Shown: positions 42,641 to 58,767 of the stretch, in pieces
Position numbering within the stretch: the stretch's first letter is position 1
Layout of the letters: every line of letters starts with the position of its first letter
From: an uncultured Verrucomicrobia subdivision 3 bacterium
GTDB taxonomy: Bacteria; Verrucomicrobiota; Verrucomicrobiia; Limisphaerales; UBA11358
Length of the DNA stretch: 64,000 nucleotides
Assembly: GCA_903875465.1 (NCBI GenBank)
Contig: CAIQWB010000102.1
Location: 12,167-76,166, forward strand
Reading direction: 5' to 3'
Notes under the pieces: generated by a model
The model's database searches: none
What the model saw: only the letters and a program-made list of their open reading frames with translations
Told to the model about the DNA's origin: nothing
Made by a program: the position numbers and the translations under genes

Positions 42641-42786
42641 GCTGCGGGCTGGGATTCATGCTTAGATTCGCACCCGGCAGCGAACGGCACAATTCAGTCT
42701 GTAATCAGTGGGCACCTGGCTAAAATAATGGCAGGGCAAGCCGGGGAGTTTTTAGCACAGCCTTGGGTTGGCCATGGCTGGTACAA

Positions 42787-42970
42787 ATCAGGTTTAACCC
42801 GAACTCCGAAATTAAGACGCCCGGTCTGCATCCATCTATTGGGCATAAACGGTTTGGAAAAATCTTACCAGACCGCTGCGGGTATGCGGTGATTTTTCCA
42901 AAGCGTTTCTGCTCCAATATCTTGACGCATCCCGGGCGTTTTAATTTCGGAGTTCGGGTTTAAGCCTGAT
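42787..42970. repeat. 184-bp rod-like nested inverted repeat (MITE-like element or long structured RNA)
   Basis: Outer arms 42787-42824 vs 42931-42970 align over about 38 bp with one mismatch, one indel and one transition. A perfect inner 12-bp pair is tttggaaaaatc (42853-42864) / gatttttccaaa (42891-42902). An innermost pair is accgc/gcggt. Confidence 0.75.
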
Positions 42971-43749: not shown

Positions 43750-44520
43750 TCATGCGCCCAAAAATTTCTGCCGTGCCGAGGCGGACAAGGCATGCAAATC
43801 GAGGATGGTCAGAAAATCGATCGTCTTAAAATCTTGGTCCAAGGCGGGCGGACCGCAAATTTTTGCCCCCAGACTCAAGTAGGCCCGGAGCAGTTTGGGG
43901 ATTTTAACGGGTTCCGGCGTGAGTTCGTGCAGGGGACACTCACAGGCTGGCAAAGGGCTGACACGCCATGGTGGCGGAGCCAGATGATGGCGGCATAAAT
44001 CGGCATAGGCGGACGCGCCCACCGCCGGTGCTTGCGAGGTGAGTGAGCTGCAACCAAACAGGTAGCGGGCGCCGTGCTGCCGGGCATATTCCGCAATGCC
44101 TTTCCAGAGCAGGCCGAGCACCACCAGGTTGCGATGTTGGGGATGCACACAGGCACGGCCCAATTCAATCAATTCGGCCCGCAACGGTTCGAAGAGCTCC
44201 AAGGCAAATTCCTGTGCACAGTAATAGCCCAGGTGCGCGGCGGCATTCGGGCCGGTTTGCAGGCGGTAGGTACCCACGATGCTGGCAGTGGGCAGATGTT
44301 CAACGACGAGATGCTGGCAAACGGCGTCAAACGGATCTTCATCCCGGCCGGTCGCGTAGGATTGGGCCAGCCCTTCATTGAGTTCCACATTAAAGACCTG
44401 AAACCGCAATCTTTGGGCAGCCCCAACATCCCCGGCATTTTGGGCCAGCCGGATGGCATATTGGGCCGGGGAACTGACCGAGACGCGAAGGATGGCACGA
44501 TCGGTTTTCATGGCGGTCAA
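43750..44520 (-). CDS. OlsB-like GNAT N-acyltransferase (ornithine-lipid / 'hemolysin-like' acyltransferase family)
   Basis: AQRLRFQVFNVELNEGL...YRLQ... pattern typical of the Acetyltransf_5/OlsB family, as I recall it. Confidence 0.6.
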   Translation of the reverse strand: MTAMKTDRAILRVSVSSPAQYAIRLAQNAGDVGAAQRLRFQVFNVELNEGLAQSYATGRDEDPFDAVCQHLVVEHLPTASIVGTYRLQTGPNAAAHLGYYCAQEFALELFEPLRAELIELGRACVHPQHRNLVVLGLLWKGIAEYARQHGARYLFGCSSLTSQAPAVGASAYADLCRHHLAPPPWRVSPLPACECPLHELTPEPVKIPKLLRAYLSLGAKICGPPALDQDFKTIDFLTILDLHALSASARQKFLGA

Positions 44521-44609: not shown

Positions 44610-44915
44610 TCATTTCTGGTTCGAGCGGAGTTGCTGCCGGATGCGCGCGCGGGCTGCCTCGGAAAGCTGCGGGGGCAAGGTTGCCACCAATTTATCCGGA
44701 TGTGCCTGGGCGGCATGGCGAAGAAAGATGATGTGCTGCCCATAGCGGCGGCACCATTGGCAAAGCAGAATGTGACAGCGCAGCCCCAACCACCGGCGAA
44801 ACGATAATTTGTGCTCCAAGGCCGCGGATTGCAGGCGGACGGCCGTTTTGCAATTCGGCGATAGCTCCAGCAGGCCCCGCAGCAGGGATTTTGCGATCTT
44901 CATCAACCAATTCAT
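44610..44915 (-). CDS. Small soluble zinc anti-sigma-like protein (zf-HC2, HxxxCxxC), paralog B
   Basis: 101 aa. SPNC...RCHILLCQWCRRY (H-x3-C-x2-C plus an upstream Cys). Alignable with the adjacent 102-aa paralog. Confidence 0.62.
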   Translation of the reverse strand: MNWLMKIAKSLLRGLLELSPNCKTAVRLQSAALEHKLSFRRWLGLRCHILLCQWCRRYGQHIIFLRHAAQAHPDKLVATLPPQLSEAARARIRQQLRSNQK

Positions 44916-44995: not shown

Positions 44996-45025
44996 TTGGT
45001 CGGAAAGTCGAAAGAATCCTTACAA
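44996..45025 (-). promoter_or_regulatory. ECF-type promoter candidate (copy B): TTGTAAGGA-N14-CGACCAA
   Basis: Minus-strand reading: AATAAATTGTAAGGA ttctttcgactttc CGACCAA. It overlaps the stop codon of anti-sigma paralog A and points at paralog B. Confidence 0.55.
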
Positions 45026-45328
45026 TTTATTACCCGCCACCATTTTCAGGTTTTTCAGGATGCGCTTTCGGGCGTCAATCGAAAGGCTGGGCAGCGTTTT
45101 AACCTGCTGGTCGACCTGGCGTCCGGCTTGCTGGAGAAACCTTAATTGTCCGGCATAGCGTTCACACCATACGCAGATGAGAAAATGCAAGCGCATGCGC
45201 AAGCGCGTGGACAGGGTCAGAGGTTGATCCAGCGACCGGGAGCTCAGGCGGGACATTTCGGCACAATTGGGGGTGTGGTTCCAGATCCACACAATTGCCT
45301 GCATTTTCAGTTTGGTGAAAGGATTCAT
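45020..45328 (-). CDS. Small soluble zinc anti-sigma-like protein (zf-HC2, HxxxCxxC), paralog A
   Basis: Start at ATG 45328 gives an ATGA overlap with the sigma-gene stop (translational coupling). Contains TPNC...LHFLICVWCERY. Confidence 0.65.
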   Translation of the reverse strand: MNPFTKLKMQAIVWIWNHTPNCAEMSRLSSRSLDQPLTLSTRLRMRLHFLICVWCERYAGQLRFLQQAGRQVDQQVKTLPSLSIDARKRILKNLKMVAGNKL

Positions 45329-46086
45329 TCGGCGATTCCCGGTTTGCCAAACCAATTGGTCTCCAGGCAACGACGCAGCGCCATGCGCGCCCGGTGGAGC
45401 ATTACCCAGAGATTGCTTTCCGAGATGTTTAGCAACGAGCAAATGTCCTTGCTGGCCACGCCGTCCACCTCGCGGAGGTTGAAAACGGCGGCAACATTCT
45501 TGGGGAGATTATTTGAGCAATCCTGGAAGGTTTTCCAAAACATTTCACTGTCCAGACTCGCCCCGGGACTGGCCCAATCCTGGGGGCCAAGCTCGTGAAT
45601 CCAGCCATCCTTGAAGAGGCCATCGGGAACGAACCGCTCGCCTTCCTCGTCCGAGTAGAATTCCAAGTCGGTGAACGGTGTTTCGCGGCTGGACTGGCGG
45701 TAATAGTCGTAAATCTTGTTTTTCAAAATCCCCACCAACCAGCTTTTCTCGGCGGCACGGCCGGCAAAACTCCTGCCCCCCTTGAGCGCGGCCAGGAAGG
45801 TTTCCTGCACCGCATCTTCCGCCCGGGCTTGGTCGCGCAAGCGGAGCAGCGCATATTTGAACAGGTAATCGCCATGCAAATCCACCCACTGTTCCGGATC
45901 GGAAAGCTGGCCGGTCGGCGGCGGATTTTCCGCCGGGAGCGGTGGTTGCGGTTGGTTTGGACGGTCAGTCGGCACGGGCTTAGTATCCGCCTTCAGCCAA
46001 AAAAATGCAATTCCCGAGCTGCGGCCGGGAAACCCGCGGGCGAAATAGTTTGTAAGGATTCGTTTTGGTCCACGACTCACCCCCAT
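45325..46086 (-). CDS. ECF-type RNA polymerase sigma factor; N-terminus uncertain
   Basis: Region 2 (DAVQETFLAALKG..., WLVGILKNKIYDYYR) and region 4 (ICSLLNISESNLWVMLHRARMALRRCLE). The first ~70 codons are Pro-rich and overlap promoter copy C, so an in-frame GTG at 45975 is a plausible real start. Confidence 0.85.
   Translation of the reverse strand: MGVSRGPKRILTNYFARGFPGRSSGIAFFWLKADTKPVPTDRPNQPQPPLPAENPPPTGQLSDPEQWVDLHGDYLFKYALLRLRDQARAEDAVQETFLAALKGGRSFAGRAAEKSWLVGILKNKIYDYYRQSSRETPFTDLEFYSDEEGERFVPDGLFKDGWIHELGPQDWASPGASLDSEMFWKTFQDCSNNLPKNVAAVFNLREVDGVASKDICSLLNISESNLWVMLHRARMALRRCLETNWFGKPGIAE
46050..46079 (+). promoter_or_regulatory. ECF-type promoter candidate (copy C): TTGTAAGGA-N14-CGACTCA
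   Basis: AATAGTTTGTAAGGA ttcgttttggtcca CGACTCA. Points toward the FMN-reductase genes. An ATG lies 6 nt after the CGACTC hexamer. Confidence 0.5.
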
Positions 46087-46308: not shown

Positions 46309-46899
46309 ATGATCGTCATTATCAGTGGAACCAATCGAAACGGCAGCAACACCCGCAAAGTGGCTGCCCATGTGGAAAAAGCTTATGGCACGCTCGGTGT
46401 GCCCGCCCAAATCATCGATCTCGCCCAATTGCCGCCGGAGATATATTTACCGTCTGCCTATGATAAAACCCCGGCCGCTTTCCAGCCTTTCATCGATAAG
46501 ATTCTCGCGGCCGATGGATTGGTGGTCGTCACGCCCGAATATAACGGAGGTATTCCCGGCGCCCTGAAGTATTTTATCGACATGCTGCCGTTTCCGGACA
46601 GTTTTGACCAGCGGCCGGTTTGTTTTGTGGGCCTGGCGGCGGGGCTCTGGGGGGCCATGCGGCCGACCGAGCAGTTGCAGCAGATTTTTGCCTACCGCCA
46701 CGGACTGGTCTTTCCGGAGCGCGTTTTTCTGCCCGGGGTCAACAACCTGCTGGACTCTACGGGCCGGTTGCAGCCGGTCATCGAAAGAAATCTGCTGCAG
46801 CAGGCCACGAAATTCGCTCGATTTGTGGAAAAGCTCCGGGAGAAAAAATTTGCCCGGGCAACGGAAGCGCCGGCAAGCGTGAGTTTGCCCACGGCCTAA
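46309..46899 (+). CDS. NAD(P)H-dependent FMN reductase family oxidoreductase (paralog 1)
   Basis: MIVIISGTNRNGSNTRKVA...VVVTPEYNGGIPGALKYFID is an FMN_red fold signature. Confidence 0.82.
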   Translation: MIVIISGTNRNGSNTRKVAAHVEKAYGTLGVPAQIIDLAQLPPEIYLPSAYDKTPAAFQPFIDKILAADGLVVVTPEYNGGIPGALKYFIDMLPFPDSFDQRPVCFVGLAAGLWGAMRPTEQLQQIFAYRHGLVFPERVFLPGVNNLLDSTGRLQPVIERNLLQQATKFARFVEKLREKKFARATEAPASVSLPTA

Positions 46900-46903
46900 A
46901 TCC

Positions 46904-47455
46904 TTGGCACCCATGATTCTGATTATTAGTGGCACCAACCGGCCCGGCAGCAATACCCGCAAGGTGGTAGCCCAGTTGGAAGCCATTTATTCCGCTCTGA
47001 GTGTGCCGGTCCAGGTGCTGGATCTGGCGCAATTGCCCCCGAGCATTATTCTGCCTTCCGTTTATGCGCAGAAGCCCATCGAATTCCAATCATTCAGCGA
47101 CGCGGTGCGCGCGGCGGAGGGACTGGTGGTGGTGACGCCGGAATACAACGGGAGCTTTCCCGGCATATTAAAGTACTTTATGGACCTGCTGCCGTTTCCG
47201 GAAAGTTTTGAGCACCGCCCGGTTTGTTTTGTGGGGCTGGCCGCCGGCATGTGGGGTGCCCTGCGCGCGGTGGAGCAACTGCAGGCCATCTTTGGCTATC
47301 GCAACGCCCATATCTTTCCGGAGCGGGTGTTTATTCCGGGCGTTGCCAAAATGGTGGATGCGGCAGGGCGATTCGCGAATACGGACATGGAACAGCGCTT
47401 GGAAAAACAGGCGGCCGGGTTTGTGGATTTTGTAAAAAAACTCAAGGCTAAATAA
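46904..47455 (+). CDS. NAD(P)H-dependent FMN reductase family oxidoreductase (paralog 2)
   Basis: MILIISGTNRPGSNTRKVV...VVVTPEYNGSFPGILKYFMD. Tandem paralog of the previous gene. Confidence 0.82.
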   Translation: MAPMILIISGTNRPGSNTRKVVAQLEAIYSALSVPVQVLDLAQLPPSIILPSVYAQKPIEFQSFSDAVRAAEGLVVVTPEYNGSFPGILKYFMDLLPFPESFEHRPVCFVGLAAGMWGALRAVEQLQAIFGYRNAHIFPERVFIPGVAKMVDAAGRFANTDMEQRLEKQAAGFVDFVKKLKAK

Positions 47456-47456
47456 A

Positions 47457-47486
47457 TTGTAAGGAATCCTTCACCTCCTCGACCAA
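47457..47486 (+). promoter_or_regulatory. ECF-type promoter candidate (copy A): TTGTAAGGA-N14-CGACCAA
   Basis: AATAAATTGTAAGGA atccttcacctcct CGACCAA. ATG 47495 lies 9 nt after the CGACCA hexamer. Confidence 0.55.
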
Positions 47487-48064
47487 TGCTGGATATGAAC
47501 ATTAAATCAACCAACCGTTTCATCGTCCGCGTGGCTTTATTTTTGGCGATCGCCACCGCCGCCTTTCATTTGCCGGCGGCCGAGCCGCCAAAGGTGGGTG
47601 CCCCCACGCCGGACTTCACGCTTAACACCATGGATGCGAAGTCTGTAACGTTGAGTGCGGAGTACGCCAAACTGCCCGTGGTATTGATCGTTTTGCGCGG
47701 GTGGCCGGGGTACCAGTGTCCATTTTGCACCAGGCAAGTGCACGCGTTTGTGGAACGGGCCAAGGATTTTGCGGGCAAGGCTCGTGTCCTCATGGTTTAT
47801 CCCGGCCCGTCAGAAAATCTGCAAAGCCACGCCGGGGAATTCCTGAAGGGTAAAGGGTGGTCGGAAGATTTCACCTTCGTCACCGACCCCGATTTTACTT
47901 TCACTAAAAGCTTCGGCTTGCGGTGGCAGGCTCCCGGCGAGACGGCTTATCCGTCCACTTTTGTGATTGATACCAAGGGGATTGTGCAGTTCGAAAAAAT
48001 CACCAAAGGCCATGGTGGTCGCACGACTCCGGAAGAAATCCTGGCGGCTCTGGCCAAGCTCTAA
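47486..48064 (+). CDS. Secreted thioredoxin-fold redoxin / peroxiredoxin-like protein (CPFC)
   Basis: WPGYQCPFCTRQ CxxC motif. Signal peptide MNIKSTNRFIVRVALFLAIATAAF if started at ATG 47495, which fits promoter copy A better than 47486. Confidence 0.78.
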   Translation: MLDMNIKSTNRFIVRVALFLAIATAAFHLPAAEPPKVGAPTPDFTLNTMDAKSVTLSAEYAKLPVVLIVLRGWPGYQCPFCTRQVHAFVERAKDFAGKARVLMVYPGPSENLQSHAGEFLKGKGWSEDFTFVTDPDFTFTKSFGLRWQAPGETAYPSTFVIDTKGIVQFEKITKGHGGRTTPEEILAALAKL

Positions 48065-48315
48065 TGGCCACGGTCTTGCTATTGCTCGGCGGATATCTCC
48101 TCTTGGGGATGTTGTTTGCCGTTCCCTTTGCTTTCATAGGGGCGCAAAGAATTGACCCCCACGCGGCGGGGGCAGGCTGGGGTTTTCGCCTCCTCCTCAT
48201 TCCGGGTGCGGTGGCATTTTGGCCCTGGCTGTTGCATCGGTGGCGCACGGGCGTGCATGAGCCTCCGGTTGAGCGTACGGCTCACCGTGAGGCTGCGCGG
48301 AAAGGCCGGCCATGA
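48064..48315 (+). CDS. Small two-TM hypothetical membrane protein
   Basis: TAATG overlap with the upstream gene and ATGA overlap with the downstream gene. Hydrophobic helices LLLLGGYLLLGMLFAVPFAFI and FRLLLIPGAVAFWPWLL. Confidence 0.55.
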   Translation: MATVLLLLGGYLLLGMLFAVPFAFIGAQRIDPHAAGAGWGFRLLLIPGAVAFWPWLLHRWRTGVHEPPVERTAHREAARKGRP

Positions 48316-48803
48316 TCCAACCATTGCGCCAGCTCCATCGTCGCGCGACTCTGATACTGGGCATTTTTGTGCCCGCGGCGTTTGCCACCGGCCTCATTTT
48401 GCGCACGCCCGCGCCCACTATGCCCGGGTTTTCTCCGGGACTTGGCCTGGCACCTCAAGCCATGACGAGCACGGGTTGGTGCCGCACGAATCTGTTTCCG
48501 AAAGGTGCGATAACCGTGCGACTGTTCCGGGAGAACCCGCCACTTTCGCGGGCGGTCGTCAGTTTTTCAGCGGATCCTGATTTTCGGCAACCCGATTTGC
48601 TGGTTTATTGGCTGCCGGGAAGCCCCATGGTGGCGGACGCACTGCCGGATAGTGCCACTTTATTGGGCGAGTTTGCGGCGCCGGCATTGCCCCTCCCAAC
48701 TGAAGCCTCCGCCCGCCCGGGGGTGTTTGTCCTATACAGTCTGGCGGATAACAAGATAGTGAATATCTCCCGGCCGGCCCTTATCGGCGAGCTCAACCCC
48801 TGA
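48312..48803 (+). CDS. Hypothetical membrane-anchored protein
   Basis: N-terminal TM ATLILGIFVPAAFATGLIL. Translationally coupled within the operon. Confidence 0.55.
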   Translation: MIQPLRQLHRRATLILGIFVPAAFATGLILRTPAPTMPGFSPGLGLAPQAMTSTGWCRTNLFPKGAITVRLFRENPPLSRAVVSFSADPDFRQPDLLVYWLPGSPMVADALPDSATLLGEFAAPALPLPTEASARPGVFVLYSLADNKIVNISRPALIGELNP

Positions 48804-48817
48804 CCATTATTTAATTC

Positions 48818-49855
48818 ATGTCCCTCCAATACCAGGCGGTCCAATGGAACCGGCAAAAGCGCCTGTACGATGCCGTGCTGGTGGGTGGGGTGGCGTTATA
48901 CCTCTTGGGTTTTGGCGCGGTGACGGAATTCCTATTCCCCAACATCACCGAGGAAATTTTGCTGATGCGGGCGTTTGGCTCGGCCGCCTTTATTTTGCTT
49001 CACATTATTCTGTGCATCGGTCCGCTGGGTCGCCTAAACGCGGGCTTTTTGCCCCTGCTGTACAATCGGCGTCATGCGGGGGTGACGTTATTTCTGCTGG
49101 CATTGATCCATGCGGTGATGGTGGTTACGACATACCATGCCGGCGGGGACACGAATCCGATTGCCAGTATCTGGGTGTCCAGTCCGTTGACTCATTCAGT
49201 GGCGGGGGTGCCTTTCCAGGCGTTCGGCTTTTTGGCATTGGTGATTTTGTTTTTGATGGCGGCAACCAGCCATGATTTCTGGCTGGCCAATTTGAGCGCG
49301 CCGGTTTGGAAATCGCTGCACATGCTGGTTTATGCCGCCTATGCGCTGCTGGTCTTGCATGTCACCTTTGGGGTGCTGCAAGCGGAAACCAGCCTGGTTT
49401 ATGCAGTGACGATGGCGGCTGGCCTGGTCACGGTGCTGGGGTTGCACGGCTTGGCCGCGAGCAAGGAAGCGCGGTTGGATCGAAAAATAAACGCCCCGGA
49501 TACTGACGGTTGGGTGGAGGCCGGTGCAGTGGCGGATATTCCCGATAACCGCGCGCGCATTGTGTGTGTGGCTGGCGAGCGGGTGGCTATTTTTAAGTAT
49601 GCGGGGAAAATCTCCGCCGTTTCAAATGTTTGTCAGCACCAGAATGGGCCGCTGGGGGAGGGTAAAATAGTGGCGGGCTGTATCACCTGTCCCTGGCATG
49701 GCTATCAGTATTTGCCGGAGACGGGGGCTTCGCCGCCACCCTTTGTGGAGCGCGTTCCCACCTTTCAAGTGCGCTTGAAAAACGGCCGGGTATGGGTAAA
49801 TCCCCAGCCAAATCCTGCCGGGACCAGGGCGGAACCGGCGGTGATTGAGCTATGA
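48818..49855 (+). CDS. Fusion of a ferric-reductase-like (YedZ/MsrQ-type, His-rich) transmembrane domain with a C-terminal Rieske [2Fe-2S] domain
   Basis: Six TM segments with conserved His (LLHIILC, LIHAV, SHDFW, LHMLVY, LHVTFG). Rieske motifs CQHQNGPL ... CPWHGYQY. Confidence 0.78.
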   Translation: MSLQYQAVQWNRQKRLYDAVLVGGVALYLLGFGAVTEFLFPNITEEILLMRAFGSAAFILLHIILCIGPLGRLNAGFLPLLYNRRHAGVTLFLLALIHAVMVVTTYHAGGDTNPIASIWVSSPLTHSVAGVPFQAFGFLALVILFLMAATSHDFWLANLSAPVWKSLHMLVYAAYALLVLHVTFGVLQAETSLVYAVTMAAGLVTVLGLHGLAASKEARLDRKINAPDTDGWVEAGAVADIPDNRARIVCVAGERVAIFKYAGKISAVSNVCQHQNGPLGEGKIVAGCITCPWHGYQYLPETGASPPPFVERVPTFQVRLKNGRVWVNPQPNPAGTRAEPAVIEL

Positions 49856-50619
49856 GTGATGATTTTTACATTGGCTGGGAAGCCCGGCCAGGAGCGGGCC
49901 CGGCCCGGCGGTTGCGGACCCTCGTGGTGCTGTTGCTGGTGGTGGGGCTTGGGCTGGCCGTGGCACTGGCCACCCAGCAACACACCATTGGGACCAGTGT
50001 GTTTGAATGGGGCAACCTGAAGCCATTTAGCGGGCGCTTGGAACTCCAACCCTATCCGCATCTCTTGGTGCCTCGACCGGGTGCCACCAACTCCCAGCCG
50101 GGGTTTTCCACTTATTATCTCGTCGCCCCCTTCAAACATGGACTTGACCGGGAGAAGTTTGGCGCCCTGGAAGGACAGATGGTGACCTTGCAAGGCACCT
50201 TGATTTATCGTGGCGATCAAACCATGGTTGAGGCCGTGCCGGATTCCATCCACGCGGTGGCGAGTCCAGCTTCCCTGCCGACGGGCGCGGCGACGGTGCG
50301 TCTGGGGCGGCAAACCCTCGTGGGTGAGATTGTGGACAGCAAATGTTATTTTGGGGTGATGAATCCCGGCCAACTGCTGCCGCACCGGGCCTGCGCGATC
50401 AATTGCATCAGCGGAGGTATTCCGCCGGTCTTGCTGGTGCGCCCAAAAAATGGTCCGGCCATTTATTTGTTGCTGGTGTCCGCCTTGGGAAAACCCGTGA
50501 ACCAGCAGGTGCTGGACTTCGTGGCCGAACCGGTGGAAATTACTGGTGAGGTTGAATGGCAGGACGGCCTGCTCATTTTGCGGGCTGATCCGCAGACTTA
50601 CCGGCGGGTGGGGCGATGA
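49852..50619 (+). CDS. Hypothetical membrane-anchored protein with a C-x15-C-x3-C motif
   Basis: ATGA-coupled to the Rieske gene. TM LRTLVVLLLVVGLGLAVALA, and Cys motif SKCYFGVMNPGQLLPHRACAINCISGGIPP. Confidence 0.65.
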   Translation: MSDDFYIGWEARPGAGPARRLRTLVVLLLVVGLGLAVALATQQHTIGTSVFEWGNLKPFSGRLELQPYPHLLVPRPGATNSQPGFSTYYLVAPFKHGLDREKFGALEGQMVTLQGTLIYRGDQTMVEAVPDSIHAVASPASLPTGAATVRLGRQTLVGEIVDSKCYFGVMNPGQLLPHRACAINCISGGIPPVLLVRPKNGPAIYLLLVSALGKPVNQQVLDFVAEPVEITGEVEWQDGLLILRADPQTYRRVGR

Positions 50620-50659
50620 GGAGATTTTTGCCCGGGAGAACTATATCACCAATCAACCC

Positions 50660-51583
50660 GTGAACCGACAGCCCTTGAACTTTTTGCGTGGTTACCGATC
50701 CTCCCCATTTTCCGGGTGGGTGGCGGGCGCCGTAGCGTTGGGCCTGCTCATCGCGCTGCCCGCGTTTGCCGGCATGTTCGCTCAATTTGACAATCCTGAA
50801 CGGCTCGGGGCGATGGTGCATGTCACCACGACCAATGGCTTCACCCTTCGCTGGGCGGAAAAACGTTCCGCTACCAACACCGGGCTGGACTTGGTCTTTA
50901 TCCACGGATCACCGGGCGGGGCCGGGGTTTGGGCGTCGCAATTTAAGGCCCCTTATCCGGGTGCTAGCCTCTATGCTTACGACCGCCCAGGCTTTGGTCT
51001 TTCCCTGCCGGTGGGGAACCAGCCGCATTTGCGAGGGCAGGTGGACGCTTTGATGGTGTTGCTGGCCCGTGCCACCACCAACCGAGTTTTACTGGTGGGG
51101 CATAGTTATGGTTCCCCCATTGCCCTGCTGGCCGCCTTGGAGCATCCGGACCAAATCGGGGGCGTGTTGCTGATCGGGGGGGATGTGGATCCGGCGCAGG
51201 AAAACCCGTGGTTCGTGCAATATTTTTTTGGCTGGCGCGCCACCTCCTGGCTGTTGCCACGCGCGTTGCGCCAATGCAACCGTGAGATGCTCTCCGCGCG
51301 CGCGGACCTGGTCCAAATGCAAACCCAATTTGCCCGGCTGGCCGTGCCGGTGGTGATGTTGCATGGCGACCATGATCCGCTGGTGCCCGTGGAAAATGTG
51401 GCCTGGTTCGAACAACAGCTCGCCGCTCTGGGCAAAGCGAACCTCTTCGCCAAAATCATCCTGCCCGGGGTGAATCATTTTATCCCGTGGGAACATCCTG
51501 GTGAAGTCGAGCGGGGCATCCGTCTACTCATCAATATGGCTGCTGGTCCAGGTGGAGCCTCCGATACCCAGATCCGGCCTTAA
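50660..51583 (+). CDS. Secreted alpha/beta hydrolase
   Basis: GTG start at 50660 gives a signal-like N-terminus (NRQPLNFLRGY...GLLIALPAFAG) and removes the overlap with the upstream gene. HGSPGG and GHSYGS nucleophile elbow. Confidence 0.75.
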   Translation: MNRQPLNFLRGYRSSPFSGWVAGAVALGLLIALPAFAGMFAQFDNPERLGAMVHVTTTNGFTLRWAEKRSATNTGLDLVFIHGSPGGAGVWASQFKAPYPGASLYAYDRPGFGLSLPVGNQPHLRGQVDALMVLLARATTNRVLLVGHSYGSPIALLAALEHPDQIGGVLLIGGDVDPAQENPWFVQYFFGWRATSWLLPRALRQCNREMLSARADLVQMQTQFARLAVPVVMLHGDHDPLVPVENVAWFEQQLAALGKANLFAKIILPGVNHFIPWEHPGEVERGIRLLINMAAGPGGASDTQIRP

Positions 51584-51927: not shown

Positions 51928-52128
51928 CCAGCAGAGGTTTTCAACCGCAAACCATTTCCCTGCGGCATAACCACCCAATTACCTCGGACGACGACGACCG
52001 GTTTCCACCCGAAGGGGCAGATTTCCCGCTTGCGTTTGGGCAACCACCAGCAAATCCCCATGGGAAACCGGAATGGAGACCTTTCTGCGGGCCAAACCAA
52101 CCCAATAAGTCAAAAATATTGAAATAAG

Positions 52129-52158
52129 GTGTAAGGAATGATGTTTAATTAAGACCAA
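52129..52158 (+). promoter_or_regulatory. ECF-type promoter candidate (copy D): GTGTAAGGA-N14-AGACCAA
   Basis: AATAAGGTGTAAGGA atgatgtttaatta AGACCAA. ATG 52166 lies 8 nt after the AGACCA hexamer. Confidence 0.5.
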
Positions 52159-52165
52159 CCATTGT

Positions 52166-52618
52166 ATGAAAAAACTATCATTGATTCTGCTTGTGCTGGG
52201 CCTGGCGCTGCCAGTTTTTGCCCAAACCAAAACCCTCCTCAACCTGGACCGTGACGGTCTGGCCATCCAAGGCTATGACCCGGTGGCCTTTTTTACCGAC
52301 CAAAAGCCGGTCAAAGGCGACGCGAAATATGTGTTCAAGCATGAAGGGGCCGTCTACTTTTTTGCATCCAAAGAGCACCGGGACCTTTTCAAGACGAACC
52401 CGGCCAAGTATGAACCGGTGTTTGGCGGGTATTGTGCTTATGGCGTTTCGCGCAACAAGCTGGTGGAAATTGACGTGGATGCCTTCCAAATTGTGGATGA
52501 CAAATTGCTGCTGCAATACAGCAAATCCATCCGTGAGGATTTCAATAAAGATGCCAAAGCCAATCTGGCCAAAGCGGATGCCAACTGGCCGGCGCTGGTT
52601 GCCAAGAAAGGCAAATAA
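52166..52618 (+). CDS. Secreted YHS-domain protein (GGYCAYG type)
   Basis: Signal peptide MKKLSLILLVLGLALPVFA. GYDPVAFF...YFFASKEHRDLF..NP.KY.P.FGGYCAYG. Confidence 0.72.
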   Translation: MKKLSLILLVLGLALPVFAQTKTLLNLDRDGLAIQGYDPVAFFTDQKPVKGDAKYVFKHEGAVYFFASKEHRDLFKTNPAKYEPVFGGYCAYGVSRNKLVEIDVDAFQIVDDKLLLQYSKSIREDFNKDAKANLAKADANWPALVAKKGK

Positions 52619-52657
52619 CCTGAGCCAAACGCGAACGCTCACAAACCAATTTATTTT

Positions 52658-53062
52658 ATGGAAAACTTTTCCAAGACCCAGATGATCGTCAGCTGGATAT
52701 GCCGGCTCACGGCGGCGGTGATTTTATTGCAAACCTTGTTTTTTAAATTTACCGGGGCGCCGGAGTCCATCTACATTTTCACCAAGGTTGGCATGGAGCC
52801 TTGGGGGCGGTACGGCTCAGGAGTGGTGGAGTTGGTGGCGGCCATGTTGTTGATGGTGCGCTGTAAAGCCTGGCTGGGGGCTTTGCTCGCGCTGGGCACG
52901 ATGTGCGGGGCGATTTTTTTTCACCTGACGATTCTCGGTATCAGTGTCCAAAACGATGGCGGATTGCTGTTTGCCCTGGCGATCGTGACTTCGGTATGCT
53001 GTGGCATCACGCTCTATCTGCACCGGCGGCAGATTCCGTACGTTTCACGATTAATCAACTAA
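52658..53062 (+). CDS. DoxX-family membrane protein
   Basis: 134 aa, four TM. The R.TAAVILLQTLFFKFTG start is typical of DoxX. Confidence 0.65.
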   Translation: MENFSKTQMIVSWICRLTAAVILLQTLFFKFTGAPESIYIFTKVGMEPWGRYGSGVVELVAAMLLMVRCKAWLGALLALGTMCGAIFFHLTILGISVQNDGGLLFALAIVTSVCCGITLYLHRRQIPYVSRLIN

Positions 53063-53069
53063 CAAAGCA

Positions 53070-53618
53070 ATGAATCCAAATGATGCTGGCGAAAGCCGGG
53101 AATTAATCAATGCAGTCATGGAAACGCTGCGCCAGGGCGAATTTCTGCTGCAGGAAATGGATAATGCTGCTTATACCTGCAAGCTGGCGGTGGCCTTTGA
53201 CGCTTCCATCGGCGGGCATATCCGGCATTGCCTGGATCATTTTCGCACCCTCCTGCAGGCGGCCCCGGCGGGTGATTTAAATTATGATCAACGCCAGCGC
53301 GGCACCGCGGTGGAAACAGATCGACTGGCGGCGCTCCAGGAAACGCGGGATTTAATCGCAAGTTATGCCAAGCTCGATCCACTCTGCACGGCGCGGTCCT
53401 TGCTGGTGACCTGCAAAACCAGCTATTCAGCCGGTGGCTCGCAAGTTTCCCCCTCCACGGTGGGCCGTGAGATCATGTATGCCGTCGCGCACGCGGTCCA
53501 TCACTACGCGTTGATCGGGGTCATGGGTGGCGTCATGGGCTTGCGGTTGCCCGCGGGCTTCGGCATCGCCCCATCCACCCTCAAACACCAGGCCGAAGCG
53601 GCGCGAATCGCCGCCTGA
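53070..53618 (+). CDS. DinB-superfamily (DinB_2-like) metal-dependent protein
   Basis: Spaced His residues in helices (GGHIRHCLDHF ... AVAHAVHHYALIG), as in the DinB four-helix-bundle His triad. Confidence 0.55.
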   Translation: MNPNDAGESRELINAVMETLRQGEFLLQEMDNAAYTCKLAVAFDASIGGHIRHCLDHFRTLLQAAPAGDLNYDQRQRGTAVETDRLAALQETRDLIASYAKLDPLCTARSLLVTCKTSYSAGGSQVSPSTVGREIMYAVAHAVHHYALIGVMGGVMGLRLPAGFGIAPSTLKHQAEAARIAA

Positions 53619-53623
53619 CGGTC

Positions 53624-55276
53624 ATGACCGGAGCCCTGCCATTGGCCCCCGAAACCCTTGCAGGATGGCTGCCGTTTTGGCAGGCCGCCGGATTTTTTTG
53701 TGCGACCTTTGTGCTGGAGGATGCGGCGGCAGTCGGTGCCGGTTTGCTGCTGGCCAGTGGCTCCATTGCCTGGCCTGCCGCTTTTTCCGCCTGTTTTCTG
53801 GGCATTTGGCTGGGGGATGTGGGGCTTTACGCGCTCGCCCGCTTTGCGGGGCGAACGTGGTTTGAAAATTCGCGGTTGAAAAAGTATTCCGGCAAAGTTG
53901 CCCGCAGTGAGAATTGGTTTCGCGAGCGCGGGACGATGATATTAATCGTTAGCCGGGCGGTGCCCGGGGCAAGGCTGCCCACCTATCTGGCCGCAGGTTT
54001 TTTGCGGGTGCCCGCCGTTGCTTTTTTGTTGATCACTGCGGCTGCCGCGCTGGTATGGACGCTGGCCGTGTTATTCCTGACGCAAATGTTCGGCACGCGT
54101 CTGTTGCATTGGTTCAGCCATTACAAATCGGTCAGCTTTTGGGTGTTGGGCAGCGCCGTTGGATTGCTGGTTGGTTTGCGAATATTGCGCCGGGTGCTGT
54201 CCGATTTGGACCGCCGCCGGTTGGGCACCCGCTTTGTCCGCTGGACGCGCTGGGAATTTTGGCCCATGTGGCTGTTCTATCCTCCCGTGGCTCTTTATTA
54301 CCTCTGGCTCGCCCTCAAATATCGTGGGGCCATGCTGCCGACCGCAGCCAATCCCGGAATCTTCTCAGGGGGCATGGTGGGGGAATCCAAAATGAAAACT
54401 TTGCAAGATCTCATGCACTCAAGCGGCGAGTTCACGGCGGAAGCGGAGCTGCTCGCCGGCGATTCCCCCAAAGGCCGGCTGATTTCATTGCGTGCGATTT
54501 GTGAGCGCCGAAATATTTCCTATCCTTTCATCCTCAAACCGGATCTGGGACAACGCGGTGCCGGCATCAAACTGATTCGGAATGAAGCCCAGGCCGTGGC
54601 GTATTTGCAGGAAACCCAAGCGCAGTTAATGGTGCAGCGGTTTGCCGCCGGCCCGCACGAAGTGGGGATTTTTTATTATCGTTTCCCCGGGGAAACTCAC
54701 GGCCGTATTTTTGCCATCACCGAAAAAGTTTTTCCCTTCGTCACCGGCGATGGCAAAGCCACGGTGGCGGAACTTATCTGGCGGGATGACCGTGCCCGCT
54801 TTATGGCGGAAACCTATTTGCAACGCGCGGGTTCACGGCAACACCATGTGCTGGCCGCGGGGGAAACGCAACCGCTCGGCCTGGCGGGCAACCACGCCCA
54901 AGGCTGTATCTTTCGTGACGGTATGAGACTGAACACGCCCGCACTGGAACAGCGCATTGATGAAATCTCCAAAAAGGTGAGCGGCTTCTACATTGGTCGT
55001 TATGACATCCGGTTTGGGAGTGAGGCAGACTTGCGCCAGGGCACCCATTTTCAAATTATCGAATTAAATGGCGCGGCGGCTGAAGCCACCAGCATTTACG
55101 ATGCGCGCAACACTTTGTGGTCCGCGTATCGCACCTTGTTTCGGCAGTGGGATTTGGTGTTTGCCATTGGGGCGGCCAACCGGCGGCGCGGCTGTGCGCC
55201 CATGACCATGCGGGATGGCTGGCGCGCCTGGCGCCATTATGCCGCGCTCGCCGCCACGTATCCGGCCGCCGACTAG
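53624..55276 (+). CDS. Fusion of a DedA/VTT-type membrane domain with a C-terminal ATP-grasp ligase domain
   Basis: N-terminus FVLEDAAAVGAGLL...WLGDVGLYALARFAGR (DedA-like) plus several TM. C-terminus YPFILKPDLGQRGAGIKLI...MVQRF...EVGIFYYR...IELNGAAAE (ATP-grasp-like). Confidence 0.62.
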   Translation: MTGALPLAPETLAGWLPFWQAAGFFCATFVLEDAAAVGAGLLLASGSIAWPAAFSACFLGIWLGDVGLYALARFAGRTWFENSRLKKYSGKVARSENWFRERGTMILIVSRAVPGARLPTYLAAGFLRVPAVAFLLITAAAALVWTLAVLFLTQMFGTRLLHWFSHYKSVSFWVLGSAVGLLVGLRILRRVLSDLDRRRLGTRFVRWTRWEFWPMWLFYPPVALYYLWLALKYRGAMLPTAANPGIFSGGMVGESKMKTLQDLMHSSGEFTAEAELLAGDSPKGRLISLRAICERRNISYPFILKPDLGQRGAGIKLIRNEAQAVAYLQETQAQLMVQRFAAGPHEVGIFYYRFPGETHGRIFAITEKVFPFVTGDGKATVAELIWRDDRARFMAETYLQRAGSRQHHVLAAGETQPLGLAGNHAQGCIFRDGMRLNTPALEQRIDEISKKVSGFYIGRYDIRFGSEADLRQGTHFQIIELNGAAAEATSIYDARNTLWSAYRTLFRQWDLVFAIGAANRRRGCAPMTMRDGWRAWRHYAALAATYPAAD

Positions 55277-55290
55277 ACCACAACCAGACC

Positions 55291-56022
55291 ATGTGCACCG
55301 TTACTTTTTCCCCGCGGCGGCGCGGCTACGCGCTGGCCATGAATCGCGATGAAAAACTTTCCCGTGCAACTGGTTTGCCACCCATTCGGCATTTCATTCA
55401 AGGGCGAAATGTGCTCGCGCCCTCCGAGCCGGGCGGCGGAACGTGGATCTCGGTGAATGACTCGGGAGCCGCTTTTGCCTTGATCAATTGGTACGCCATC
55501 GCCGCCCAGGTGGAAATTGGCCCAGTCAGCCGGGGGAAGGTGGTTTTTGCCGTGAGTGCAGTCGCCACCGGTGAAGCGGCAGCCAGTGCTTTGGCACAAA
55601 TGCCGCTCCACTCGGTGAATCCCTTTCGTCTTATCGGTGCTTTTCCGGCGGCCCAAGAAATCCGGGAGTGGCGCTGGGATTTAAAAAAGTTGGTGCAGGC
55701 GGCGCATCCGTGGCGCTTGCAGCAATGGATTTCATCCGGTTTCGATGAACCCACGGCCCAACTGATGCGGGGCCAAGTTTTTCAAGCCGCGAGCGCACAA
55801 AAATCTGTTGGCTCACTGGCGTGGTTGCGCCGCCTGCACCGCTCCCACACCCCGATTGCCGGGCCATTTTCGACCTGTATGCACCGCGTGGATGCCGCCA
55901 CGGTAAGCTATTCCGAAGTGCGCGTGAGCAGCGATGCTGCCAAGATGAATTATTTCGCCGGTGCGCCCTGTCAATGTGCGGGTGGTGTGCCTGATAAAGC
56001 CATGGTAATGTTGTCAAAATAA
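55291..56022 (+). CDS. NRDE-family (TANGO2-like) protein with N-terminal Cys (Ntn-hydrolase-like)
   Basis: MCTVTFSPRRRGYALAMNRDEK carries Cys2 and a literal NRDE motif. Start at ATG 55291, not the long ORF start at 55117. Confidence 0.8.
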   Translation: MCTVTFSPRRRGYALAMNRDEKLSRATGLPPIRHFIQGRNVLAPSEPGGGTWISVNDSGAAFALINWYAIAAQVEIGPVSRGKVVFAVSAVATGEAAASALAQMPLHSVNPFRLIGAFPAAQEIREWRWDLKKLVQAAHPWRLQQWISSGFDEPTAQLMRGQVFQAASAQKSVGSLAWLRRLHRSHTPIAGPFSTCMHRVDAATVSYSEVRVSSDAAKMNYFAGAPCQCAGGVPDKAMVMLSK

Positions 56023-56393: not shown

Positions 56394-56470
<77 letters not shown>

Positions 56471-56754: not shown

Positions 56755-58767
56755 GTGCCCGGCCTGAACGATAAAATAACACCCGCACTCGTCTCCCTTG
56801 GGGGGGCGATGGTGGTGGTGTTTATCGGTTTCTTTTTGTTATTTACCTCCTGGGGGGATGCTTGGGTAACTGCCAGTTACGACAACCTGTTCCGTTTTGG
56901 CACACCGGCCGTGACAAATCAGGTGACTCTCATCCGGATGGATCAAGCCGCCTTCACAAAATATGGCCAAACGCGCGGGCAGCCCTGGGACCGGTCCTGG
57001 CATGCCCGGCTATTGAACCGTTTGGCGGATGATGATTGCCCGCTGGTGGTGTTTGATTCCTTTTTTCAAAACCAGCAGGATCCGCAAACCGATAACCAAC
57101 TGGCTGTGGCGATGCGCCGTTTGCGCCACATTGTCCTCTTGGCGAACCAATCGCAATTGGAACAGTCCAAATTTGTGGCCGATTCACCGGAGCTTCCCAC
57201 GGAGCCGTTTTTAAGTGCCGCACATGGGAATTGGGGGGTGGGGTGGGTGGATGCGAATGCCGATCTGGATGGGGTGGAGCGTCGGCACTGGCCATTTCCA
57301 TCCCCTGGGCCATATGCGAGTCTGCCGTTGAAGGCGGCGGAACTGGCCGGCGCGCACTTAAGGAACGAACCGCAGGAGCGCTGGGTGCGCTACTATGGTC
57401 AACATGGCTCTTGGGAAACGATGAGCTATGGGGAGGCCTTTTCTGTGCCGGCAAACTATTTCCGCAACCGGGTCGTGTTTATCGGCACGGATCCTGAAAA
57501 TAAACTGCCGGCCCGGGGCACTGGCTTAAATACTGACAAATTTGACACGCCTTACACGGGATGGACCGGGGAATCTTCCGGTGGCGTCGAAATCCAGATG
57601 GCCGAGTTTTTAAATCTCTGGAATAATCAATCACTGATTCAACCGCCGGTCGGGGTGGAAATCCTGATTTTTACATTGGCTGGCGCTGGCTTGGGCGGGG
57701 GGCTTTGCCGTTTGCGGCCGCGTAATGCGTCCTTGGTGGCAGCGGGCCTTTTTCTGGTAATTTCGGGAGCCGCCATCACCCTCAGTTATTACACGAATTA
57801 CTGGTTTCCCTGGTTAATTGTGGCGGGCGGGCAAATTCCTGGCGGACTGGGCTGGGCGCTGATCACTCGCCCACGCCGGAAAACCGCCTTGGCCCGGCTG
57901 CCCGCTGGAGCCTCGGTCCCGGAGACTCCCGGCTATGATTTGGTCCACCCACCCATTGGCGAAGGTTCCTATGGCAAAGTATGGCTGGCCCTGAACTCCG
58001 CCGGCAAGTGGGTGGCTTTGAAGGTGATTTATCAGGCCAAATTTCAGGACGACCCCATACCCTACGATCGCGAATTCAGTGGCGTGCAACAATACCGTGC
58101 CATTGCCCATCAGCATCCCGGTTTGCTCCAGGTGGAATTTGTCAGTGAAAAAGCCCCGGATTACTTTTACTACGTCATGGAACTGGCCGACTCCCTGGCG
58201 GCAGGTTGGGAAGCGAACCCAGCGAATTACAAACCTTGTGATTTGGTCACCGTGCGGGCCAGTTTAAAGGGGCGTCGGTTGCCCGTTCGGGATTGTGTCA
58301 AACTGGGCATTACCTTGTGCCAGGCAATGGAATTCCTTCATCAAAAAGGATTTATCCACCGGGATATCAAACCGCAAAACATTGTTTTTGTGAACGGGGT
58401 GCCAAAATTCGCCGATTTGGGCCTGGTTACCGGCATTCGCCCCCTGGATCAGGGGGGAACCTTGGTGGGAACCATGGGTTATATGCCGCCCCTGCCGGAG
58501 CGGCCAGGCACCGTGGCGGCGGATATTTATGCCTTGGGCATGGTGCTTTATGTGGCCAGCACCGGTGGCCTGCCATCGCACTTTCCCGAGGTGGACACGA
58601 CCATGGTGAAGGCCGAAAAACCACCCGATTTTTTCCCGCTAAACCACGTCTTTCTGAAAGCCTGCCAGCCAGTCGCTGCTGATCGCTTTGCCACCGCCGC
58701 CCAGATGGGGGAGGCCCTCGCCAAGGCGTTGGCAACCATGGAGCATTTCGGTCAAATGCCCCAATAA
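56755..58767 (+). CDS. CHASE2-domain sensor fused to a Ser/Thr protein kinase
   Basis: N-terminal TM, a periplasmic region of about 300 aa, three clustered TMs (the CHASE2 layout), then kinase motifs GEGSYGKVW, ALKVI, HRDIKPQNIV, DLG and GTMGYMPP. GTG start. Confidence 0.82.
   Translation: MPGLNDKITPALVSLGGAMVVVFIGFFLLFTSWGDAWVTASYDNLFRFGTPAVTNQVTLIRMDQAAFTKYGQTRGQPWDRSWHARLLNRLADDDCPLVVFDSFFQNQQDPQTDNQLAVAMRRLRHIVLLANQSQLEQSKFVADSPELPTEPFLSAAHGNWGVGWVDANADLDGVERRHWPFPSPGPYASLPLKAAELAGAHLRNEPQERWVRYYGQHGSWETMSYGEAFSVPANYFRNRVVFIGTDPENKLPARGTGLNTDKFDTPYTGWTGESSGGVEIQMAEFLNLWNNQSLIQPPVGVEILIFTLAGAGLGGGLCRLRPRNASLVAAGLFLVISGAAITLSYYTNYWFPWLIVAGGQIPGGLGWALITRPRRKTALARLPAGASVPETPGYDLVHPPIGEGSYGKVWLALNSAGKWVALKVIYQAKFQDDPIPYDREFSGVQQYRAIAHQHPGLLQVEFVSEKAPDYFYYVMELADSLAAGWEANPANYKPCDLVTVRASLKGRRLPVRDCVKLGITLCQAMEFLHQKGFIHRDIKPQNIVFVNGVPKFADLGLVTGIRPLDQGGTLVGTMGYMPPLPERPGTVAADIYALGMVLYVASTGGLPSHFPEVDTTMVKAEKPPDFFPLNHVFLKACQPVAADRFATAAQMGEALAKALATMEHFGQMPQ

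Follow-up and report, generated by a model that had tools for sequence, protein, structure and literature searches.

Positions 52,166 to 56,022 of a 64,000-nucleotide stretch of DNA from an uncultured Verrucomicrobia subdivision 3 bacterium (contig CAIQWB010000102.1, hereafter the window) carry five co-directional open reading frames (ORFs) on the forward strand, separated by gaps of 39, 7, 5 and 14 nucleotides (nt). They encode a YHS-domain protein of the Cys/Sec family (52166-52618, 150 amino acids (aa), NF041384), a DoxX-family four-helix membrane protein (52658-53062, 134 aa, PF07681), a DinB-like protein that is a putative metal-binding four-helix bundle (53070-53618, 182 aa, weak DinB_2 match), a DedA-ATP-grasp fusion protein (53624-55276, 550 aa) and an NRDE/TANGO2-family protein (55291-56022, 243 aa, PF05742), a putative amidohydrolase with an N-terminal cysteine nucleophile (Cys-Ntn). 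The start of the last protein, MCTV, sits within a longer GTG-started ORF (55117-56022). An original prediction, made from the bare sequence, had described these genes as a single operon behind a common promoter motif ('motif copy D') and had proposed that they make a non-glutathione thiol or a modified peptide. Our ORF calls agree with the gene arrangement, and the gaps together with a copy of an extracytoplasmic function (ECF)-type bipartite promoter at 52122-52158 support the single operon. A sigma-70 promoter scan of the operon region gave matches at chance level only.

The promoter copy upstream of the YHS gene, on the forward strand, reads AAATAAGGTGTAAGGAAT-N12-AGACCAA. The window holds four in-register copies of TGTAAGGAWT-N12-CGACCAA, of which this is one, the others being located at 45015 on the reverse strand and at 46050 and 47457 on the forward strand. 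While the short promoter core alone was not significant in the window, the bipartite form was. In 1.05 Mb of related loci we counted 132 occurrences of GTAAGG-N14-16-CGAC, versus 6.75 in shuffles and 12 for the reversed pattern. The motif is therefore real, being enriched about 20-fold. Copies were found just upstream of genes for YHS (33), DoxX (26), DinB-like (15) and sigma factor proteins (7), for a Gcn5-related N-acetyltransferase (GNAT, 6) and for a CoaB-like protein (3), and often only 4-35 nt separated the motif from the ORF. Within the window, the -10-like element is found ~2-12 nt from start codons at 52152-52166 and 47480-47495, and ~10 nt before the YHS start. Since this element lies so near to start codons, transcripts of the regulon may have little or no leader.

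The operon is presumably controlled by an ECF sigma factor of the TIGR02943 family with regions 2 and 4 (45325-46086, reverse strand; 189 bits versus a cut-off of 162). The stop codon of its gene overlaps the start (ATGA) of a gene for a soluble, 102-aa zinc-associated anti-sigma (ZAS) factor (45020-45328, reverse strand) that contains HFLICVWC, an HxxxCxxC motif. Since an ECF sigma factor is paired here with an HxxxCxxC anti-sigma factor, the regulon is SigR/RsrA-like, as had been predicted, and would answer to thiol-oxidative or electrophile stress. The same design is seen in SigR-RsrA of Streptomyces, SigE-MseR of Neisseria and RpoE2-HrsE of Haemophilus, where a small soluble HxxxCxxC anti-sigma factor is encoded just downstream of the ECF sigma factor and a common bipartite promoter precedes redox-repair genes. 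The ZAS-ECF regulons of RpoE2 and SigE respond to HOCl and H2O2, and among their targets is an operon that pairs DoxX with a periplasmic protein (PMC7907618), comparable to the YHS-DoxX pair of the window. In contrast to the SigR, SigE and RpoE2 regulons, the window uses a different consensus (GTAAGG-N15-CGAC) and holds a second ZAS paralogue inside the regulon (44610-44915, reverse strand; CHILLCQWC; NF052368, 2.9e-12). Encoded behind the promoter copy at 44999-45031 (reverse strand), which also serves an OlsB-like GNAT gene and the CoaB-like gene, this paralogue could feed back negatively on the regulon or serve as a second sensor. Likewise, the DinB/DedA-ATP-grasp/TANGO2 core and the OlsB-like cargo are unreported for SigR, SigE and RpoE2 regulons.

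We then compared the operon with related loci, using one genome per species. More than 480 loci were returned and 80 were kept, mostly labelled Verrucomicrobiota, with seven labelled Acidobacteriota and a few bearing other phylum labels. Carriers of the core include the Limisphaerales chromosomes OZ260084.1, OZ245740.1 and OZ251460.1 and, among cultured bacteria, Chthoniobacter flavus; Pedosphaera parvula or a strain of Phycisphaera or Singulisphaera may have it as well. To count neighbours, the window proteins were scored against all ORFs of these loci. The DinB gene lay immediately upstream of the ligase gene in 72 of 73 loci and the NRDE gene immediately downstream of it in 65 of 71, while DedA was fused to the ligase in 71 of 76. 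DoxX was found upstream of this core in 52 of 73 loci (71%) and YHS in 37 of 68 (54%). An ECF sigma gene was present within 8 kb of the core in 22 of 44 loci, an OlsB-like GNAT gene in 11 of 44 and a CoaB-like gene in 4 of 44. The DinB/ligase/NRDE gene order is thus far beyond chance. The genes do co-occur elsewhere, but not as one indivisible unit of five: the adjacency counts identify the triad DinB, (DedA-)ATP-grasp and NRDE, in this order, as the unit under selection, with YHS and DoxX as frequent accessories that often have their own promoter copy, and with the CoaB-like gene at the periphery.

Gene fusions tie the triad together further. Among the best 150 ligase representatives, 84 were DedA-ATP-grasp proteins and 26 were ATP-grasp proteins with only a short hydrophobic/aromatic N-terminus; longer forms comprised 29 proteins of ~780-1000 aa and 3 of more than 1000 aa. 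Ten of the longer ligases were scanned for domains. Seven (855-1030 aa) proved to be alpha/beta-hydrolase-DedA-ATP-grasp fusions, and two (P0160 and P0190) carried TANGO2 in addition, in the order TANGO2-alpha/beta-hydrolase-DedA-ATP-grasp; a third protein of this kind (P0430) came from the homologue search. P0160 starts with MCTVTL and continues to an NRDE motif, so that the catalytic cysteine stays N-terminal in the fusion. The named members of this hydrolase-fused clade are Planctomycetota, and in ten of its genomic contexts we found DinB in 9-10 and TANGO2 in 9. In the window itself, a separate membrane-anchored alpha/beta hydrolase (50546-51583, forward strand) resembles the hydrolase domains fused to DedA-ATP-grasp (1e-8 to 1e-10). 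Given these fusions, a merely regulatory association of ligase and NRDE protein is very unlikely. In the literature searched, we found no description of the triad or its TANGO2 fusions, and no link of TANGO2/NRDE with ATP-grasp, DedA, DinB or ornithine lipids. All parts come from known superfamilies and the type of regulon is known; there is a minority chance that the core represents an entirely new pathway.

The fusion protein at the centre of the triad consists of three parts. Its N-terminus is a DedA/VTT membrane domain (53624-54250, ~aa 1-209), matched by the VTT model PF09335 over aa 40-153 with 58.7 bits (cut-off 33.9). Similarity to the equivalog model of the undecaprenyl-phosphate transporter UptA was partial (1e-10) and, at 42 bits, below the cut-off of 250. 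Hydropathy analysis revealed four clear hydrophobic membrane helices, and since the loops are rich in K/R and a very basic stretch follows the DedA part, the C-terminus with the ATP-grasp domain is likely cytoplasmic. Directly after this strongly basic stretch comes an aromatic interfacial segment, RWEFWPxWLFYPPV..YYLWLALKY (54251-54322, aa 210-233), which has invariant columns and remains below the transmembrane threshold. ATP-grasp proteins without DedA keep the segment as an N-terminal anchor, starting 20-50 aa before it. In every architecture seen, the ligase is therefore either fused to DedA or anchored by the aromatic segment.

The remainder of the protein (54323-55276) is, by fold and motifs, an ATP-grasp carboxylate-amine ligase domain of the cyanophycin-synthetase-G / GshF / RimK type. 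The K-loop ILKPDLGQRGAG, the loop AGNHAQGC and the Mg-site ELNG are invariant in the family, as are K305, N423-C428 and E480-N482 in 50 ligase sequences. An AlphaFold model built from 50 sequences reached a predicted local distance difference test (pLDDT) score of 70. With Foldseek, its best matches were the G domains of the cyanophycin synthetases CphA1/CphA2 (7txv, 5.5e-8, probability 1.0; 7ta5, 1e-7), followed by the ATP-grasp domain of the bifunctional glutathione synthetase GshF (3ln7, 3ln6), whereas D-Ala-D-Ala ligases (Ddl) appeared only at 1e-5 to 1e-4, two to three orders below CphA and GshF. A search of the PDB with the sequence profile again found CphA1 (8.5e-6; residues 255-452, from the K-loop to E-x-N). 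The nearest structural relatives of the ligase are thus the CphA G domain and the glutathione-synthetase domain of GshF, ahead of the cell-wall ligase Ddl, in line with the glutathione-synthetase-type ligases considered in the original prediction. No Pfam ATP-grasp family matched it at E<=0.01, and the NCBIfam cyanophycin synthetase model gave 28.7 bits against a cut-off of 850. Since no curated ATP-grasp model scores above threshold, the protein belongs to a distinct, uncurated subfamily. This subfamily is large: 2321 homologues were found at E<=1e-5 in a 90%-clustered collection, the best 120 of which measure ~510-600 aa (most of them 550 aa) and, in the few named cases, come from Verrucomicrobiota. 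A profile of the ATP-grasp domain matched 3225 representatives at 50% clustering (E<=1e-3), 1373 of them at E<=1e-30.

With the CphA1/CphA2 G domain and GshF the window ligase shares the K-loop, N-x-x-x-G and E-x-N motifs at an identity of 17-20%. These enzymes take an N-acylated residue, activate its alpha-carboxylate as an acyl phosphate and let an amine attack it, and the same chemistry would be expected of the window ligase. Unlike them, it lacks a conventional N-terminal substrate domain and has DedA plus the aromatic interfacial helix instead. It also differs in the active-site loop AGNHAQGC (54893-54916, aa 424-431), where an invariant Cys replaces the second Gly of the RimK/CphA loop N-x-x-x-G-G. 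For a member of a thiol-stress regulon, a redox-sensitive loop at this position is conceivable.

The NRDE protein matched PF05742 with 39.3 bits (cut-off 22.6), residues 1-117 aligning to positions 1-124 of the 257 in the model; against the human TANGO2 sequence, E was 0.3. It has in common with human TANGO2 and with bacterial HtpA the PF05742 family, the Met-Cys N-terminus and the NRDE motif. In contrast to both, the window-type gene is operonic or fused with ligase, DedA and alpha/beta hydrolase, a context that we did not find described for either. Among neighbouring genes with the 5' end present, all 70 encode an [M/V]-C-[TS] start followed by the NRDE motif 16-17 residues on. Cys2, which the original prediction had singled out as a possible Ntn nucleophile, is therefore invariant, and a crystal structure of human TANGO2 published in 2026 has been taken to show a Cys-Ntn hydrolase (PMC13044924). 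The structures nearest to it are those of two penicillin acylases (isopenicillin N N-acyltransferase and penicillin V acylase) together with bile-salt hydrolase, acid ceramidase and NAAA, all but the first of which count as hydrolases of N-acyl-amide lipids; according to the authors, all Ntn enzymes hydrolyse amide bonds, while the substrate of TANGO2 is not known (PMC13044924). Binding of acyl-CoA has been proposed as well (PMC11867700). The window protein is expected to be a Cys-Ntn amidohydrolase that becomes active after removal of Met.

The first three proteins of the operon were assigned with differing strength. The YHS product scored 145 bits (7e-43, cut-off 70) with NF041384, 'YHS domain-containing (seleno)protein', and is probably secreted, as it has a signal-like N-terminus with hydrophobic residues 1-19 (hydropathy). 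A search of the PDB with this protein gave no solved relative except spurious repeats. For the cysteine of its GGYCAYG motif, the original prediction had named selenocysteine as the counterpart in some homologues. The family name agrees with this, but selenocysteine was rejected for the related loci, as all 41 of 41 encode Cys at this position and never TGA. DoxX was assigned by PF07681 (32.6 bits, cut-off 23.6) and has four hydrophobic segments. For the DinB-like protein, the DinB_2 match stayed below the cut-off (17 bits versus 24.8, E=0.008), while precomputed PF12867 or PF05163 matches exist for some homologues of 65-75% identity; DinB neighbours in Planctomycetes mostly show weak DinB_2/DinB matches, and two loci are unmarked. 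Invariant residues are H50, H53, H57, H141, H144, H145 and C115. The structure model predicts four long helices, but with a pLDDT of 50.6 (48-sequence alignment) it was too poor for a fold search, and a PDB sequence search with this protein gave no match even at E<=10. The DinB superfamily contains thiol-dependent metalloenzymes such as BstA/YfiT, MST and the N-domain of EgtB.

What surrounds the core points to lipids. On the reverse strand of the window, behind the promoter copy at 44999-45031, lies the gene for an OlsB-like N-acyltransferase (43750-44520), an Acetyltransf_5 GNAT of the aminolipid / N-acyl amino acid synthase type (PF13444, 1e-27). It aligned over the full length of the OlsB model NF052554 (1.9e-43), its 149 bits being below the equivalog cut-off of 350. 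OlsB-like genes accompany the core in 21 related loci. Such a gene stands behind the ECF motif in 6 Verrucomicrobial loci besides the window, and in 6 of the 7 Acidobacteriota-labelled loci it divergently adjoins DoxX-DinB-ligase-NRDE. Three of the ten hydrolase-fused contexts (L081, L083 and L089) have a different neighbour, a 601-608-aa Acyltransf_2/PlsC/Acetyltransf_5 protein adjoining the core; those of L081 and L083 scored 400-408 bits with the bifunctional ornithine-lipid synthase OlsF. In L083, a TMEM164-family gene (PF14808, 7436-8209) adjoins both the OlsF-like gene and the TANGO2-hydrolase-DedA-ligase fusion; we take TMEM164 to be a eukaryotic lipid acyltransferase family. A fourth context, L086, encodes an OlsI-like/OlsH-like pair immediately upstream and in the same orientation, the gaps to the DinB and TANGO2 genes measuring 53 and 12 nt. 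The OlsH-like member scored 376 bits (2e-112); a 2025 paper described OlsH/OlsI as a pathway of the GH3 type (PMC12493201).

In total, an aminolipid N-acyltransferase is encoded within 8 kb of the core in 25 of 91 loci, and the core is genomically coupled to three types of synthase, OlsB- (OlsBA), OlsF- and OlsH/OlsI-like, which are non-homologous and stand beside it in Verrucomicrobiota, Acidobacteriota and Planctomycetota. With three unrelated solutions to one reaction beside it in three phyla, the core is hard to explain unless it handles their product. A reaction of the required kind exists: in Gluconacetobacter cerinus, taurine is transferred to the head-group carboxylate of an ornithine lipid in an ATP-dependent manner by a ligase whose gene is unknown, and dipeptide and tripeptide head groups of ornithine lipids exist too (PMC12971839, a 2026 review). 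This orphan enzyme performs the ATP-dependent amide ligation on a head-group carboxylate that we propose for the window ligase. Neither the review nor the OlsH paper (PMC12493201) mentions DinB, TANGO2, DedA or ATP-grasp neighbours.

Further members of the regulon concern redox chemistry. The promoter copy at 46043-46079 (forward strand) precedes two tandem paralogous genes for flavin mononucleotide (FMN) reductases (46309-46899 and 46904-47455, forward strand), which are 70% identical at the DNA level over 300 nt; with the promoter ~250 nt upstream, their leader is unusually long next to those of the other copies. Another copy (47450-47486, forward strand) opens a redox/hydrolase operon (47450-51583) that encodes a Redoxin (47486-48064), two small membrane proteins (48064-48315 and 48312-48803), a ferric-reductase-type heme membrane domain fused to Rieske (48818-49855), a membrane-anchored Cys-rich protein (49852-50619) and the alpha/beta hydrolase mentioned above, all on the forward strand. 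The four-gene membrane module within it (48064-50619; anchored proteins of 83 and 163 aa, heme-Rieske and the 255-aa Cys-rich protein) has three members without family annotation and is an MsrQ-like device for electron input whose periplasmic partner is unknown. A corresponding redox module, composed of small membrane proteins, ferric-reductase/Rieske, a ~255-aa anchored Cys-rich protein, Redoxin/AhpC-TSA and sometimes DoxX, accompanies the core in Acidobacteriota and, within the hydrolase-fused clade, in 4 of the ten contexts examined. Its presence near the core fits an envelope-oxidation response and also keeps thiol or electrophile models alive.

The third gene behind the promoter copy at 44999-45031 encodes a stand-alone CoaB-like ligase with a DFP C-terminal domain (42960-43652, reverse strand; PF04127, 2e-23), an accessory member of the regulon. 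The original prediction had counted it as part of the pathway. It does share the regulon behind this minus-strand promoter, but it lies 8.5 kb from the operon, reaches 74 bits against the CoaB cut-off of 265 and has relatives within 8 kb of the core in only 4 of 44 loci; we therefore rejected it as a member of the core pathway. A near-perfect hairpin of ~185 nt (42784-42970) abuts its stop codon. The outer arms of 50 nt are 84% complementary, an inner inverted repeat measures 22 nt, and the minimum free energy is -109.6 kcal/mol (z-score -16.9; no Rfam match). The hairpin is possibly an element resembling a miniature inverted-repeat transposable element, or an oversized terminator.

We tentatively favour, at somewhat less than an even chance, the reading that the core is a stress-induced system at the membrane face which ligates and hydrolyses amide bonds on N-acyl-amino-acid lipids of the ornithine-lipid type. 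We infer its substrates, the directions of its reactions, its inducing signal and any flipping of lipids as follows. The operon would comprise two modules. In the first, the secreted, Cys-containing YHS protein and the membrane protein DoxX would form an envelope redox pair as in other ZAS-ECF regulons. The second would combine the DinB-like metalloprotein, a membrane-held ATP-grasp amide ligase and a TANGO2-type amidohydrolase with N-terminal cysteine. The OlsB-like enzyme encoded in this regulon would supply its substrate lipids. Held at the inner membrane face by its DedA domain and aromatic interfacial helix, the ligase would convert the head group's free alpha-carboxylate to an acyl phosphate and couple an amine or amino acid to the activated carboxylate, with the chemistry that CphA G and GshF apply to a peptide C-terminus and the reaction type of the orphan taurine-ornithine-lipid ligase. 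DedA proteins are a family of translocators of lipids or lipid carriers, and the DedA domain may move the lipid across the membrane. The TANGO2-like hydrolase and the membrane alpha/beta hydrolase would cleave amide and ester bonds, in turnover or repair (deacylation, trimming). The DinB-like protein would carry out a metal- or thiol-dependent step that we leave open. We consider it rather improbable that the core goes further and builds and recycles a peptide- or thiol-extended aminolipid such as N-acyl-ornithyl-X, possibly with cysteine added via the CoaB-like enzyme, as a membrane-anchored thiol for DinB.

Several points weigh against aminolipids as the substrate. Aminolipid synthases stand beside the core in only about a quarter of loci (25 of 91), and the heme/Rieske redox module is its neighbour in about as many Planctomycete contexts. 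Since all Ols-like matches fall below the NCBIfam equivalog cut-offs, the amino acid of the head group and even the lipid class are not fixed. The closest ATP-grasp relatives, CphA and GshF, act on soluble peptides, and no core protein has a homologue among the known Ols enzymes of ornithine-lipid synthesis and modification (OlsBA, OlsF, OlsH/OlsI; OlsC/D/E/G). The DinB fold is chiefly associated with enzymes of small-thiol chemistry, of which the lipid model makes no use, and we know of no DedA protein proven to be an aminolipid flippase. As to the proteins themselves, the NRDE match extends over no more than the N-terminal half of PF05742 and human TANGO2 is reached at E=0.3 only, while the ligase model reached medium quality (pLDDT 70) and that of the DinB-like protein was unusable (pLDDT 50).

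A soluble low-molecular-weight thiol other than glutathione, or a modified peptide cofactor, was the product originally proposed, and much of what led to it stands: the regulon is of the ZAS-ECF type, the ligase is closest to GshF and cyanophycin synthetase, and Cys2 of the NRDE protein is invariant. The DinB-type His cluster with its invariant Cys fits as well, the CoaB-like gene shares the regulon in the window and is present in a few other loci, sometimes behind the same promoter, and no gshA/gshB-type match was found among the window ORFs scanned. We nevertheless regard this route as unlikely. It would have a GshB-like ATP-grasp enzyme, an EgtC-like trimming amidase (NRDE), a thiol S-transferase that uses the product (DinB) and a cysteine ligase (CoaB-like), an allocation of roles that seems improbable to us, and we are equally doubtful of the export that goes with it, in which DedA would deliver the product to the periplasm for use by YHS/DoxX. 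No enzyme devoted to ligating cysteine or inserting sulfur, such as those of the GshA/B, BshABC, MshABCD or EgtA-E pathways, is encoded in the operon as a conserved part of the cluster; the core lacks a cysteine-specific enzyme, a glycosyltransferase and a methyltransferase/sulfoxide synthase. Nor did family scans of the operon, the window ORFs and the related loci show a glycosyltransferase, an MshD-type GNAT or an FGE-sulfatase domain. The ligase, moreover, is membrane-embedded or anchored in all architectures and, in Planctomycetota, fused to a membrane-anchored alpha/beta hydrolase. A GNAT that is OlsB-like and lipid-forming rather than MshD-like, a ligase in the membrane, three unrelated aminolipid synthase types next to the core and the loose link to CoaB (4 of 44 loci) together favour membrane aminolipid chemistry over a soluble thiol pathway. 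Thiols could also enter through detoxification. Here DinB would conjugate a cellular thiol to electrophiles such as quinones, aldehydes or oxidised lipids, which we likewise hold to be improbable. The combination of S-transferase, amidase, N-acyltransferase and exporter is the known logic of mycothiol and bacillithiol detoxification, DinB, ligase and amidase are tightly linked, and a regulon with a ZAS sensor, two FMN reductases, DoxX, Redoxin and a DinB-fold protein resembles quinone/diamide stress regulons. Cleavage of the conjugate by the TANGO2-like amidase, in the manner of Mca/Bca or gamma-glutamyl transpeptidase, with capping by an acyltransferase, is in our view an unlikely sequel, and little more can be said for an export of the conjugate by DedA with regeneration of the thiol carrier by the ATP-grasp enzyme. 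We know of no detoxification pathway with an ATP-grasp enzyme fused to an exporter, membership of the DinB-like protein in its family is weak (17 bits versus 24.8), and the adjacency of OlsF, OlsH and OlsI as well as the fused alpha/beta hydrolase would go unexplained.

Two other readings concern the cell envelope and heme. The partial similarity of the DedA part to UptA (1e-10) and the presence of Ddl among the Foldseek matches would suit a modification of envelope polymers or carrier lipids, with DedA handling undecaprenyl phosphate or lipid II. UptA scored 42 bits against a cut-off of 250, however, and conserved murein or glycan genes were not found nearby in the loci examined, which makes this very unlikely. 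As improbable is its enzymology, in which the ATP-grasp enzyme would add an amino acid to a peptidoglycan or glycan precursor, like D-Asp ligase or Ddl, and the Ntn hydrolase would trim it: Ddl ranks two to three orders below CphA/GshF, and the adjacency of aminolipid synthases is not accounted for. Least probable of all is that the TANGO2 homologue is an HtpA-like heme trafficker serving the heme-b/Rieske membrane protein, with the rest merely co-regulated. A heme-trafficking role was reported for HtpA of Shewanella (PMC10470608), and a ferric-reductase-type heme membrane protein recurs near the core. But the role of TANGO2 in heme is disputed (PMC12782551), its crystallographers judged heme binding to be non-specific (PMC13044924), and this reading gives ATP-grasp and DinB no role, while the strict Met-Cys N-terminus and the fusion to hydrolase, DedA and ligase argue for catalysis within a pathway. 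The probability that remains beyond the aminolipid system and these four alternatives goes to something else.

If the core does act on aminolipids, its closest analogue in design would be MprF with its partner hydrolase, an aminoacyl-phosphatidylglycerol synthase-flippase accompanied by a periplasmic alpha/beta hydrolase, e.g. PA0920/PA0919. Both would follow the same logic: a head-group enzyme fused to a lipid translocator, turnover by an alpha/beta hydrolase, and adaptation of the membrane surface to stress. The folds are unrelated, though. Where MprF transfers from aminoacyl-tRNA to form an ester, the core would use ATP-grasp to form an amide at the expense of ATP; DedA takes the place of the MprF flippase domain, and the DinB and Cys-Ntn components are additional.

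Beyond these genes, the operon region is closed by a tRNA-Met gene (56394-56470, reverse strand) with its own terminator hairpin, after which follows a CHASE2-sensor Ser/Thr kinase gene (56755-58767, forward strand); an Rfam scan of the window gave tRNA only. Elsewhere in the window are msrA (33991-34545, reverse strand) and an Mla lipid-transport operon (6977-9935).

ATP-dependent extension of ornithine-type head groups has been known since the 1970s, with no gene to account for it; the ligase family of the core is now a candidate, and a possible client for the DedA family comes with it. If the core does build and recycle an extended aminolipid, the gene class of the orphan ornithine-lipid head-group ligase would be identified, and a client lipid would be at hand for a protein of the enigmatic DedA family. 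TANGO2 deficiency is a severe human disease, and the biochemical function of the protein is unresolved; the core gives a concrete substrate class to test. Should the extended-aminolipid reading hold, N-acyl-amino-acid or aminolipid amides would be the native substrate class of the TANGO2 family, testable for TANGO2 deficiency. For the Verrucomicrobiota, a poorly studied phylum, our analysis defines an ECF/ZAS oxidative-stress regulon together with its promoter.

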